NCBI GenBank assembly: GCA_963733035.1 | Contig: CAVTBU010000006.1 | Location: 288,001-352,000, forward strand | DNA from: Pirellulales bacterium | Lineage (GTDB): Bacteria; Planctomycetota; Planctomycetia; Pirellulales; PALSA-1355 | Reading direction: 5' to 3' | Length of the DNA stretch: 64,000 nt | Part shown: positions 28,173 to 39,257 of the stretch, one piece after another | Numbering within the stretch: position 1 is the first letter of the stretch | Layout: each line of letters opens with the position of its first letter | Program-made: the position numbers and the translations under genes | The notes under the pieces: model-generated | What the model was told of the DNA's origin: nothing | What the model saw: the letters and a program-made list of their open reading frames with translations, nothing else | Database searches by the model: none

Positions 28173-29401
28173 GTGATTCCTCCCAAAATCGTGGCCCGTC
28201 CCACGCGGCCGATGCCCAGCATGTAGGCCGCGGTTCGGAGGCTGACTTTGCGTTCCTGAGATAGAGACCAGACGCGCTCAAAGGCATTGGTCATCACGCT
28301 GTCGAGTTCCTGGCGGACTCGGTTGATGCCCCAGGAATAGTGTTGGCGATTTTGCACCCATTCAAAATAGCTGACCGTGACGCCGCCCGCATTTGCCAGA
28401 ATGTCCGGCAGCACAACCGTTCCGCGTTCGTCAAAGAGCTGATCGGCGTCCGGCCAAACCGGTTGATTGGCCGCCTCGATAATCATGGGAGCCTTGACGC
28501 GATCGGCGTTCGCGGCCGTGATCACACCTCCCAACGCGGCGGGGACCAGGAGTTCGACATCGAGTTCGAGTAACTCTTCGTTGGAAATTCGTTCGGCCTC
28601 CTTGTACCCCTTCAGGCCATGATGCTCGCGCGAATACTGAAGCAACTTGGGAACGTCGAGCCCATCGGGACGAAAATAGCCGCCGCTGACGTCGCTCACG
28701 GCGACGATCTTGAACTCCGACTCGTGCATGAACTTGGCCGCATGCGCACCCACGTTTCCAAAACCTTGCAGAGCGACGCGCGTTTCCGAGACCTTGCGTC
28801 CCAGGCGGCCGAGCATTTTGAATGCCAGAATACCCACTCCGCGCCCCGTCGCCTCCTCGCGTCCCGGAATGCCATGCAGCTCGACGGGCTTGCCGGTGAC
28901 AGCGCCTGGATTGAAACCGTGGTACTTCTGGTACTGGTTCATTATCCAGGCCATCACGTCGGCATTCGTACCCATGTCGGGTGCGGGAATGTCGACATCC
29001 GGGCCCAGCACGTCGTGAATGCCGTCGATGAATTTGCGCGTGATCCGCTCGAGCTCGCGCACGCTGAGCTTTCCGGGATCAACGGCTACGCCCCCCTTGG
29101 CACCGCCAAAGGGAATGTCGACCAGCGCGGTCTTCCAGGTCATCAACGCTGCCAGTGAACGAACCTCGCTCAGGTCGACCTCGGGATGAAACCGCAGGCC
29201 TCCCTTCATTGGTCCCCGAGCGTCGTCGTGCTGGACGCGATAGCCAATGAACGTCGCGATTTCGCCGTTGTCCAGTTCGATCGCAATTTGAACTGATACC
29301 TCACGCTTGGCGGTCAGCAGCAGTTGCCGCATGTTCTCACTCAAGTCCATTCGATCGGCAGCGCGATCAAAATATAGACGAGTGGCGTCGATTGCTCGCA
29401 T
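28169..29401 (-). CDS. gdh: Glutamate dehydrogenase (Glu/Leu/Phe/Val family)
   Basis: [52 protein letters not shown]. Confidence 0.92.
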
Positions 29402-35020: not shown

Positions 35021-35886
35021 AGGTAGAGTTCGGAAAGCAGAAGATGAGGAATCCAGACGTCATTCTGCTGCTGGGCCAGATCGCGCGTTTCTTTCGCGTT
35101 CCTCAGGCCGCACTGCTCTTGCTGCTGGCGTCCTCGTGTGCATCGATGCCGGAGTTGCCTTGGGCGCCAGTGGCGAAGGATGCTTCGGCGGGCTTCTACG
35201 ATACGGCACGGTTGGAATACCGGCTCGACGCCGGCAAGCTTGGCCAGCCGCTCGACGTATTGCGAGTCGATGGTCGGCAGGTCAACTACGAGCAGATTGC
35301 CAGCAGTCCACTTCCTGATCGCTCGGTGGGAACGCTCGTCATTCAGCAGCCGCATCCGGCCGGACGCGAGGGATTTGCTCGCGTGACGTTCTCGATCGAC
35401 AGTGCGGAGCCGTCAACCGAAACGAGCGTTTGGAACCGATTTGTGTTGACGGATTCGTCATCCGTCAAGATTGGTGGTCAAGAGGAAGTGCATGAGATTT
35501 GGGCCATGGACCTGCCCCAAGCCGAGGCAGGCCAGTACTTCAAACTGCTGTCGATGCGGAGTTTCTACTCGGCCCCCGAGCCTGACATTGCGACAGCGCA
35601 TTTGGCCGTGACACTGGATGGCAAAGAGGTGGCAAAGAATTGGGAGTCGTTGCCTGAATTGAATGCCCTGGCTCAGCGTGTTCGTCGCGAAGGGCGCCTG
35701 GTGGCCTATCTGCGTCCCCAGGCACTGGCGGGCGAAACATCGAATGCGATCGCGAGCGTGCAGGCCTACCGTGAAATGCTGGCCAGAACGAGTTCGCCGA
35801 CCGGATCGCCGCCGCCTGCGGCATCAGGTATCCTGGCCCCCGAACCAAGCGTGGCCAGCAACCACTTGCCCTATGCCGCCCGCTAG
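35017..35886 (+). CDS. Hypothetical lipoprotein
   Basis: Hydrophobic ALLLLLASSC lipobox-like segment; GTGA overlap with the extended cupin stop (ATG 35044 is an alternative start). Confidence 0.6.
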   Translation: MKVEFGKQKMRNPDVILLLGQIARFFRVPQAALLLLLASSCASMPELPWAPVAKDASAGFYDTARLEYRLDAGKLGQPLDVLRVDGRQVNYEQIASSPLPDRSVGTLVIQQPHPAGREGFARVTFSIDSAEPSTETSVWNRFVLTDSSSVKIGGQEEVHEIWAMDLPQAEAGQYFKLLSMRSFYSAPEPDIATAHLAVTLDGKEVAKNWESLPELNALAQRVRREGRLVAYLRPQALAGETSNAIASVQAYREMLARTSSPTGSPPPAASGILAPEPSVASNHLPYAAR

Positions 35887-35928
35887 GGGCGTGGCTGGCT
35901 TTTTTCCTCCGCGCAGCGGCATGCTCCC

Positions 35929-35957
35929 TTGCAAACCGCCGCGCATCTGATCACAAT
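35929..35957 (+). promoter_or_regulatory. Putative sigma70 promoter of the DAHP synthase leader
   Basis: TTGCAA (35929-35934), 17-nt spacer, CACAAT (35952-35957); predicted +1 falls on or near the leader ATG at 35964. Confidence 0.5.
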
Positions 35958-35963
35958 AGCGGC

Positions 35964-36038
35964 ATGAACGACTTCCTCCGCGTGTATTTTTGGTACTTTT
36001 TTATCCCGCTGAGTCGCGGGGCCGGAGGAGGAACGTAA
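35964..36038 (+). CDS. Aromatic-amino-acid leader peptide (attenuator uORF) MNDFLRVYFWYFFIPLSRGAGGGT
   Basis: 24-codon ORF with the run TAT TTT TGG TAC TTT TTT (YFWYFF), followed by a terminator and DAHP synthase; 36010-36022 is complementary (12/13) to the terminator 5' arm. Confidence 0.85.
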   Translation: MNDFLRVYFWYFFIPLSRGAGGGT

Positions 36039-36068
36039 AATTCCATCCTGAGGAAGCGACCAAAACAG

Positions 36069-36109
36069 AGCCCCGAGACTCAACCAAAGTCTCGGGGCTT
36101 TTTTTGTTT
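36069..36109 (+). terminator. Intrinsic (attenuator) terminator upstream of DAHP synthase
   Basis: Perfect 12-bp stem AGCCCCGAGACT / AGTCTCGGGGCT, 7-nt loop, then a TTTTTTGTTT tract. Confidence 0.9.
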
Positions 36110-36191: not shown

Positions 36192-37205
36192 GTGATCGTT
36201 GTCATGAAGAAAGAGGCCTCGACCGCCGACGTCGAGCACATGGTCCAGCGGATTGAAACGCTGGGCCTGAAAGCCCATGTCATTGTCGGCACCGAGCGCA
36301 CCGTGATCGCCGCCGTGGGCGACGACCGCCAAGCGCATAAAGAATCTTTGGAGAGCGGCCCGGGAGTCGCCGAAGTCATGCCCATTCTTGCCCCCTACAA
36401 AGTTGCCAGCCTGGAAGTCAAACACGAACCGACAACAATCCGGGCAGGCAGTCTGACGCTCGGCAATGGTACCGTCGGCGTCATTGCCGGGCCCTGTTCG
36501 GTTGAGTCCGAAGAGCAGATTCTCGCCTGTGCGCACGCCGTCAAGAAAGCCGGTGCCACGGCCCTGCGCGGCGGCGCCTTCAAGCCGCGCACCAGTCCTT
36601 ACAGCTTTCAGGGCCTGAAGGAAGACGGCCTGAAAATGCTGGCCGCGGCGCGCGATGCGACCGGCCTGGCCGTCGTGACCGAAGTTGTTGCGACCGAGGA
36701 TGTGCCCCTGGTGGCCGAGTACGCCGACGTGCTGCAGATTGGCGCTCGCAATATGCAGAACTACCGGCTGCTCGAAGCCGTGGGCGCGACCGATTGCCCC
36801 GTGCTGCTCAAGCGCGGGCCGAGCGCCACGATCGACGAATTGCTGCTGGCTGCCGAGTACGTACTGAACGGCGGCAATCCGAACGTCATGCTCTGCGAGC
36901 GGGGCATTCGGACCTTTGAAACGCATACACGTTTCACGCTACCGCTGGCGACCGTGGTCTATCTGCATAAGAAGACGCATTTGCCGGTGGTCGTTGATCC
37001 GAGCCACGGAACGGGTCACACCTATCTGGTTCCGCAGATGGCGGCCGCCAGCGTCGCCGCCGGGGCGGACGGCCTGATTATGGAAGTGCATCCCGATCCC
37101 GAACGGGCGCTTTCCGACGGCTATCAGTCGATGAACTTCAAACAGTTTGAAGAGACCATGGAGATGTGCCGCAAAGTCGCCGCCGCGCTCGGTCGCAAGA
37201 TGTGA
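36192..37205 (+). CDS. aroF: 3-deoxy-7-phosphoheptulonate (DAHP) synthase, type I-beta with N-terminal regulatory domain
   Basis: MIVVMK N-terminal ferredoxin/ACT-like domain, [52 protein letters not shown]. Confidence 0.95.
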
Positions 37206-37242: not shown

Positions 37243-39005
37243 TCAATGAGCGGCGGGTGCCGTTTGTTCGGGGGCGATGGGGATTTCAATGAGTTCCTCG
37301 TGCACGCGTTCGCGCTCACGGTCGACTTGCTCGGCCGTGGCTCCGAGTTCGCGGAGCATGGCCGTTGCGAGTGCGAGCGCGACTTCGCCTTCGCCGGAGA
37401 AGACGAGGTCCGCGCCGGCCGATTTTACGGATCGCAACTGCGTGACGTAGCTGACGCGCGCCAGCACTCGAATCTTGGGATTGAATAGGCGCGCCAGGCG
37501 GATTACCTCCGCGCTGCCGTTGAGGTTCGAAGCGCTGAGGATCAGCGTGCCGGCCAAGTCCGCGTGCGCGCCCTTCAGCGTATCGGGCTGCGTCGCGTCG
37601 CCATAGACGGCGGCAACTCCCGCGCGGCGGGCCGACTGCACGGCTTCAAAGTTCAAGTCGATTACGGTTGGTTCGACTTCGTTCTCGCGGAGCAATCGCA
37701 CGAGCGTGCGCCCAATTGGGCCGTAACCAATGATCACGGCCCGATAAGGCGAGGGCTTCACATCCTCGGGTGGGTGGTCGTCAGTCTTGTGCGTCTTCCT
37801 GCGGCGTTTGAGCCAGTGTCGCAACCGGGCGTTGCGTAGTAGCCAACCGCCCAACGGATCGGACGAGCGATAGAGGATCGGGTTGATTGAAATCGAAACA
37901 ATTGCCGCGGCGACCAGGGCCTGTGTTCCCTCGACGGGCAACAGATCCAGTTCGCGCCCAGGGTTGCCAGAATGAACGAGAATTCGCCGATTTGCGCGAG
38001 CGCCATCGCGACTGCCAACGCGGTCTTGAGTGGATATCCAAGTGCCGCGACAATTGCCCAGGCCGCCACCGGCTTGCCGATCAGGATAATTGCCAGGGTT
38101 GCGGCGATCAGCCCCGGCATCGCCAGCAGGCTATGCGGGTTGAGCAGCATGCCCACCGAGACGAAGAACAGCACCGCGAATGCGTCGCGCATCGGCAGTG
38201 CATCCGACGCGGCCCGCAGGCTGAAGTCGCTACGGGCCACAATCATGCCGGCCAGGAATGCGCCCAGCGCCATCGATACGCCGAACACCACGGCCGAACC
38301 GACCGCAATTCCAAGCGCCACCACTAGCACCGTAAGCGTGAACAACTCGCGTGAACGTGTCAGCGCGGCGCGATGCAGAATCCACGGCACAACGCGGCCG
38401 CCGATCACAAAGACGGCGGCCACCAGCACGACGACCTTGCTTACCGCGAGGAGAAGTGTTAGCCAGAGCGGGCCTGCATCCGCGCCACCACCGAAGATGG
38501 CCGGCAGTAGCACGAGCACCAGCACCGTTAGGAGATCCTCCACGACCAACCAACCGACGGCAATGTGGCCGGTCGGCGTGTGCAGATCGCGATGGTCGCT
38601 CAACACGCGCAGCAACACCACCGTGCTGGCCACCGAAATCGCTAGCCCAAAGATCAACCCGGCCGACCAGTCCCAACCGAAGGCCCGAGTTGCCAACATG
38701 CCCAACGCGGTGGCGACCAGGCATTGCACCACGGCGCCCGGTACTGCCACTTTCCGCACGGCCAATAGTTCGTTGAGGTGAAACTCGAGGCCCACGCCAA
38801 ACATCAGCAGAATCACGCCAACTTCGGCAAGTTGCTCGGCGATCGATTGATCGGCAATGAAGCCGGGCGTGTCGGGTCCCACGACGATGCCAGCCAAGAG
38901 ATAGCCAACAATGGGCGATAGACCCAGTCGGTGCGTGATGTAGCCCAGTACAAGCGCAATCGCCAGGCCCGTAGTCAATGTCAGAATCAAATCCAAGCCG
39001 TGCAT
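37243..39005 (-). CDS. CPA2 cation:proton antiporter with C-terminal TrkA-N/RCK domain, YbaL/RosB-like (frameshift at ~37958)
   Basis: LAEVGVILLMFGVG, ISVASTVV, LAQIGEFSFIL; reading resumes ...ELDLLPVEG in the other frame, with IIGYGPIG and YGDAT. Confidence 0.85.
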
Positions 39006-39257
39006 CGGGTTTGCCTGTTGATCTCGGGGTGGCGCCGTCGAATGGAAGGAAGAACGGCCGACTATTCGCCGGTCCGTCGTCCGTCCGCGGCAATCACCAT
39101 ACAGAAAACGGAAAGGGGCACCAATCCCAGGCAAGTCAGGTCAATCCGCCTGGCACGTGCGTGCCCTGAAAGCCGCACCAGCCCGCGCGGATAAGTCGTG
39201 CCGAAGCGCAAGTCAAAGCTTGCGGAAAGTTCGGAACGCTGAACGGCGAGCGTAAGC

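Follow-up and report, generated by a model that had tools for sequence, protein, structure and literature searches.

The window analyzed here is a 64,000-nucleotide stretch of a 6.6-Mb Pirellulales genome in which a DAHP synthase gene is preceded by a short upstream open reading frame (uORF) and by a hairpin with a U-tract. The features of the locus, given in window coordinates, were as follows.

35882..35906, + strand: weak terminator-like hairpin and U-tract closing the upstream 289-aa gene (terminator scan)
35929..35957, + strand: sigma70-like promoter candidate (TTGCAA-17 nt-CACAAT), separated by 6 nt from the uORF ATG
35964..36038, + strand: leader uORF of 24 codons plus TAA, without a Shine-Dalgarno-like word ahead
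35985..36002, + strand: putative sensing codons, six consecutive, Tyr-Phe-Trp-Tyr-Phe-Phe (read from the sequence)
36010..36022, + strand: putative antiterminator 5′ arm inside the uORF tail, partner 36070-36082
36056..36060, + strand: GCGAC, partner GTCGC at 36013-36017, forming a hairpin that encloses the stop codon (complete in 33/52 leaders)
36069..36108, + strand: intrinsic terminator, 12-bp stem 36069-36080/36088-36099, 7-nt loop, and U-tract
36192..37205, + strand: type Iβ DAHP synthase, 337 aa, the putatively regulated gene, with a GTG start and a GGAG ribosome-binding site about 6 nt ahead

The product of 36192-37205 scored 483 bits against NF006421 (cutoff, 335) and 380 bits against TIGR01361 (cutoff, 268) and aligned over its full length with PDB 1rzm, which we take to be the Thermotoga maritima enzyme with its N-terminal regulatory domain. 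A literature search on the allosteric residues of the DAHP synthase found nothing useful. The second DAHP synthase copy of the same genome, also type Iβ (G000:C5:508691-509685), stands directly behind a coding region, without a leader; its Pfam match was broken into two segments (positions 9-215 and 221-267), and this copy may be frameshifted or mis-sequenced. A CPA2/Kef-like potassium antiporter on the minus strand of the window (37243-39134) was split between overlapping ORFs that differ in frame (37758-39134 and 37243-37941), possibly through a frameshift or sequencing error.

The original prediction, made from the letters of the window, had proposed a 24-codon uORF carrying the run YFWYFF and 4 Phe, 2 Tyr, and 1 Trp codons in all. 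This reading frame was borne out at 35964-36038 (+), with the product MNDFLRVYFWYFFIPLSRGAGGGT and the aromatic run at 35985-36002. A count over the six frames of the genome gave four runs of at least six consecutive F/Y/W codons; a further such run in the window (WYFWYWF, 28920-28940 [+], equivalent to G000:C6:316919) seemingly lies within a longer reading frame. Exact look-up of three leader peptides in a protein collection gave no match, and peptides so short may go uncalled. The predicted 12-bp terminator was likewise found, with arms at 36069-36080 and 36088-36099, a stem stability of −22.7 kcal/mol, and a U-tract from 36099, as was the predicted pairing of the uORF tail with the terminator 5′ arm (36010-36022 with 36070-36082; 12/13 paired; duplex, −22.4 kcal/mol). 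The leader region as a whole folded with a z-score of −3.14, and none of 200 shuffles was equally stable.

For comparison with relatives, the best DAHP synthase match was taken from 60 of 61 genomes, and one starting at a contig end was removed, leaving 59 orthologues. The rows left out before counting were L013 (gene at contig start), L003 (upstream region identical to that of L002), and G020 (only a paralogue-level match among those listed). A fixed presence filter (an ORF of 12 to 35 codons in which a stretch of 8 codons holds four or more aromatic residues, followed by a hairpin and U-tract), which like the anchor codon used below was designed after the first relatives had been seen, detected the leader layout before 53/59 orthologues across the order and before 0/10 of the second, more distant DAHP synthase copies (paralogues). 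The conserved aromatic uORF that the original prediction had suggested looking for is thus present. Among the six negatives were two apparently degenerate leaders: L026 retained the RNA arms but has apparently lost the start of the uORF, and L027 retained the promoter-like site and the terminator, with the aromatic uORF absent, through either natural loss or assembly error. A comparable filter applied to the window's own genome gave 18 hits among 2,110 terminator-like sites.

Beyond the order, 61 of 121 genomes had a phylum-level DAHP synthase match. When the best 40 of those matches were inspected, 15 were preceded by a terminator and a leader with five or more aromatic residues within eight codons, and 10 of these 15 were among the 33 loci from other classes. 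A covariance model trained on 52 leaders matched 40/101 genomes of the class. All 29 matches inspected (the window's own excluded and 13 weaker ones left out) lay directly before a DAHP synthase gene and had an aromatic uORF, and 22 of them came from genomes outside the training set; the window's own genome contained one full copy. A loose pattern scan of contigs, which returned at least 120 stretches with 1 true leader in 120 (L065) and 1 more flagged by chance, was set aside as too unspecific; the leader of L065 is shared with a genome of the window's family.

The aromatic codons of the 52 leaders were frame-specific: counted from the last Phe as anchor, 5.7 of 7 codons were aromatic in the uORF frame, versus 1.4 to 1.5 in the other two frames. 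In 50/52 leaders, a promoter-like site (TTG-hexamer, 16- to 17-nt spacer, and −10 hexamer) lay 6 or 7 nt ahead of the uORF start, and the same geometry was found before 0/52 DAHP synthase (aroF) starts; a Shine-Dalgarno-like word preceded 0/52 uORFs versus 50/52 aroF starts. The predicted transcription start falls at or adjoining 35964, and the promoter distance together with the absent Shine-Dalgarno word suggests that the uORF is probably translated from the very 5′ end of the transcript, i.e., that it is leaderless. That the uORF appears to start at the transcription start was overlooked by the original prediction. The E. coli trpL and pheL leaders are leadered. A consensus promoter scan of the window listed no site; the promoter candidate emerged by comparing relatives. 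Several leaders from other orders were longer and lacked the promoter-to-ATG geometry. Within the order, L167 (G050) was the one leader without it, having a promoter-like site further upstream and no Shine-Dalgarno-like word. In a genome-wide count of candidate leaderless starts among ordinary genes, 11 sites fell at 6 nt versus 2 to 7 at other distances, numbers too low to interpret. The hairpin at 35882..35906 would insulate the leader promoter from the upstream gene.

Covariation was computed on the 52 distinct leaders with a tool that warns that relatedness can inflate scores. In the terminator, 92.6% of cells were paired, with 59 double-change cells versus 15.7 after shuffling; in the antiterminator, 89.4% of cells were paired, with 30 double-change cells versus 11.5. 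For each, 0/500 shuffles scored as high and slid controls were far lower, so that the covarying stems suggested as a check in the original prediction were found for both structures. An alignment-free duplex between the stretch after the last Phe and the terminator 5′ arm reached −10 kcal/mol or lower in 52/52 leaders and was stronger than every upstream control window in 48/52. The distance from the U-tract to the DAHP synthase start ranged from 29 to 425 nt, and in L154 (G054) about 425 nt of repetitive sequence separates the terminator of an intact leader from the gene.

These data bear on a control of the mycobacterial kind, in which a leaderless sensory uORF would act without a terminator-based switch. 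The leader does resemble the leaderless sensory uORFs described in bioRxiv 10.1101/834739; the covarying terminator with its U-tract, however, belongs to the selected layout, and because the distance from U-tract to gene is so variable, the leaders maintain no constant pairing with the ribosome-binding site. We regard such control as barely credible here.

Conservation of the uORF tail admits another explanation, in which the active agent would be the uORF product or the nascent peptide, either as a TnaC-like stalling peptide binding a free amino acid or as a small functional protein. The tail (P-P/L-G/S-R-G-A-G-G-G) is well conserved, the last Phe stands 11 codons before the stop in 43/52 leaders, and PP occurs in 29/52 and PPG, an EF-P-dependent pause motif, in 22/52. 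Third codon positions in the tail are conserved as well, however (CGC for all 37 Arg; GGG for 42/46 Gly), and in L010 and L153, where the frame is shifted after the aromatic run, the RNA motif is kept but not the peptide; the tail therefore looks constrained as RNA. The order of the aromatic residues and the N terminus also vary freely, counting against a peptide product. We consider this explanation very improbable.

We instead interpret the element as a transcription attenuator of the ribosome-mediated kind that governs the DAHP synthase gene, with a probability of about 0.88 given the comparative and folding evidence. RNA polymerase would start at or adjoining the uORF ATG, where the promoter geometry is seen, and a ribosome would load on the leaderless 5′ end and translate the uORF. 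With charged aromatic tRNAs plentiful, the ribosome would pass codon 16 and cover 36010-36022, upon which, to judge from folding, the 12-bp terminator would form and a transcript of ~140 nt would be released. With Phe-, Tyr-, or Trp-tRNA in short supply, it would wait in YFWYFF. Segment 36010-36022, whose pairing is indicated by covariation, would then capture the terminator 5′ arm, presumably before the 3′ arm is made, and once the antiterminator had formed, the polymerase would read into the DAHP synthase gene. The original prediction, in which a stall on an aromatic codon lets 36010-36022 take the terminator 5′ arm, is supported in this respect by conservation, covariation, and footprint folding.

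Footprint folding used equilibrium models in which the ribosome was assumed to cover 9 nt past the A site and the terminator 3′ arm was not yet made. When the ribosome was placed at each of the final seven codons of the aromatic stretch in turn, 49 to 51 of the 52 leaders had an antiterminator probability above 0.5; this number fell to 8/52 at three codons beyond the last Phe and to zero at four codons or more. Folding with and without a footprint, a check put forward with the original prediction, hence agrees with it: the antiterminator survives a stall on the aromatic codons and collapses three codons later. In the absence of a ribosome, the antiterminator was favored in 43/52 leaders (median probability, 0.96), so most of these leaders are predicted, if the model is right, to default to read-through when untranslated. 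When the 3′ arm was available (full length), the terminator always won in the window, which requires switching to be kinetic. Both patterns recurred for E. coli trpL in this model, with switching by ribosome position and the terminator winning at equilibrium; E. coli pheL switched partly even at equilibrium.

In E. coli trpL and pheL, a protector disfavors the antiterminator without a ribosome (probabilities of 0.06 and 0.23), in contrast to the median given above for the leaders compared here and to 0.35 in this window, where a protector-type fold is local. A 1:2 protector or pause hairpin is typical of trpL and not universal, and no conserved, covarying 1:2 protector hairpin was found among the 52 leaders. 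The original prediction had also paired TTCCTCC (35973-35979) with GGAGGAA (36027-36033). These segments do pair in the ribosome-free fold of the window, but all 7 pairs were complete in only 3/52 leaders, so the pairing is local, lies outside the conserved design, and was ruled out as a conserved element. A CCCGC:GCGGG protector was also rejected, its letters being conserved but without compensatory change in the 52 leaders. The hairpin of GCGAC with GTCGC, possibly a pause or trap hairpin, had a covariation score not above that of shuffles (152/500 as high).

A constitutive terminator, or a switch controlled by a protein or ligand (TRAP-like, T-box, or riboswitch), would make the aromatic codons a by-product of a U-rich RNA motif. 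Phe codons in the leaders were indeed 138 TTT versus 47 TTC, while the long ORFs of the genome prefer TTC (15,370 TTT versus 24,892 TTC), so U-richness itself is under some selection, and TTNTTT occurred in 32/52 leaders; the TTT preference may reflect slow decoding by wobble pairing or polymerase pausing at U-rich sequence. Against a mere U-rich motif, the start codon lies at the predicted transcript start with the aromatic codons in its frame, TAC (62) and TGG (54) codons are common, and the boundary of the switch matches ribosome geometry. A search of the leader region against Rfam, moreover, gave no family at gathering score. Phe_leader (RF01859) scored 16.9 bits against a threshold of 55, His_leader (RF00514) 23.3 against 49, and Thr_leader, on the minus strand, 15.1 against 55; Trp_leader was unlisted at E values up to 10. 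We judge a constitutive, protein-controlled, or ligand-controlled terminator to be very improbable.

Within the attenuator reading, the amino acids sensed were assessed from codon content. Phe was found in 52/52 leaders, Tyr in 50/52 (missing in 2), and Trp in 47/52 (missing in 5); all three were present in 45/52 leaders and, with one leader per genus, in 34/37 genera. Genome codon frequencies are 2.4% for Tyr and 1.5% for Trp. There were 3 to 4 Phe codons in 46/52 leaders, and the last aromatic anchor codon was always Phe (TTT in 50/52). Trp was represented by a single codon in 41/52 leaders, its usual position being three codons before the last Phe. When absent from this place, Trp was found elsewhere in the leader in 12/13 genera, versus 4/24 genera with Trp in place (counted by genus, among which kin are not independent). 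That the Trp codon relocates rather than vanishes points to selection for the presence of such a codon and not for particular letters.

The same attenuator could in practice be a Phe sensor like C. glutamicum aroR, with Tyr and Trp contributing little, a subcase that differs only in its inputs. Phe is the sole universal residue, the most numerous, and always the last anchor, Trp is mostly a single codon, and the FYF precedent of C. glutamicum answers, in the passages describing it, to Phe only. Such a sensor would leave unexplained the frequency of Trp and Tyr relative to the genome and the relocation of Trp. Two further points weigh against it: the model permits the antiterminator from every aromatic position, so that a ribosome stalled on any aromatic codon lets the gene open, and one distant family is dominated by Tyr (e.g., L206 and L211). 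We consider a Phe-only response plausible, at odds clearly below even. For the attenuator as we read it, Phe is probably the strongest input, and Tyr and Trp are probably real but weaker ones; that all three amino acids would give a measurable response seems somewhat better than an even bet. The Tyr-dominated family (f55: L206, L211, L213, L214, L216, and L217) consists of AT-rich distant relatives, in which Trp is absent from four of six leaders and one leader has only 10 codons.

No Trp leader was found before trpE of the window's own genome, among upstream ORFs of at least 20 codons or in the upstream sequence inspected. The lack of a leader at trpE and at the second DAHP synthase copy is in keeping with regulation at the shared first step. 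The trpE ATG lies 5 nt behind a TATAGT hexamer (L236:1405-1419), so trpE itself may be leaderless. A broader reading, to which we give slightly less than even odds, is that of a Planctomycetota-wide, mostly leaderless family of attenuators acting as a three-input OR gate (shortage of Phe, Tyr, or Trp) at the entry to the shikimate pathway. It would perhaps be the sole point of Trp attenuation, with a codon makeup tuned by lineage, and mostly without a protector, so that an untranslated leader would give read-through.

Gene regulation in planctomycetes has been little studied, and the leader offers a precise, testable regulatory element in most members of an order and in other classes. It would provide a new RNA family for annotation, and the approximately 50 natural variants, differing in Phe, Tyr, and Trp counts, form a series for asking how many codons make a sensor and whether a single Trp suffices. 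If one leader does report on Phe, Tyr, and Trp together, it would in addition be a compact part for biosensors.

The closest precedent is aroR-aroF of C. glutamicum, and leader attenuation of a DAHP synthase gene as such has been described before. PMC11802643 and PMC7356990 summarize Neshat et al. (2014), where ribosome stalling at a Phe-Tyr-Phe leader raises transcription; according to the former, aroR responds to Phe, with Tyr without effect, and the leader was first noted in PMC4046766. As far as these descriptions allow comparison, both systems place a short aromatic leader directly before the DAHP synthase gene, whereas the planctomycete leader belongs to another phylum and has six aromatic codons, one of them a conserved Trp. 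With E. coli trpL-trpEDCBA and pheL-pheA it shares the leader peptide, the antiterminator, and the intrinsic terminator; each of those two attenuators, as described in PMC11802643, responds to a single amino acid and regulates a terminal branch. The surprise is moderate, given a textbook mechanism and the aromatic leader already known from the DAHP synthase gene of C. glutamicum.

The leader peptide of C. glutamicum ilvL-ilvBNC, in passages of PMC11857589, begins one nucleotide from the transcription start; this system has an anti-antiterminator hairpin, and a start-codon mutation lowers expression by 80%. On that description, it resembles the present leaders in its codons for several amino acids of one pathway and its transcription terminator, and its start position is like the one predicted here. 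It differs in sensing branched-chain amino acids and in its anti-antiterminator, whereas the model predicts read-through for most of the present leaders when no ribosome is bound. Mycobacterial polycysteine short ORFs, leaderless sensory uORFs read by ribosome pausing (bioRxiv 10.1101/834739), share the leaderless arrangement predicted here.

For Vibrio, Thermus, and other bacteria, attenuators have been predicted ahead of operons with a DAHP synthase gene (PMC1173090, Table 7), as also for Shewanella aroF (PMC2659441); these are predictions only, and the passages concerned contain no three-aromatic leader. The strings “Planctomy” and “Pirellula” are absent from the main text of PMC1173090. 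Planctomycete leader genes are treated only as distance statistics in passages and four supplements of PMC4833913, and passages of PMC1262725 report that no Phe or Tyr structures were found in Actinobacteria. A full-text literature search, with subscription papers and attenuator databases outside it, found neither a description of the element in planctomycetes nor a leader with all three aromatic amino acids. Within the reach of that search, the apparent novelty is that one leader combines all three, is probably leaderless, and shows no conserved protector hairpin; the type of switch is textbook.

A second candidate attenuator was found in the same genome (L232:1394-1560; G000:C5:517830 onward, + strand), where a 27-codon Ile/Val-rich uORF ending in AIAVGVIIISEVRP and a strong terminator precede a citramalate synthase gene (TIGR00977, over cutoff); this leader probably senses Ile/Val.
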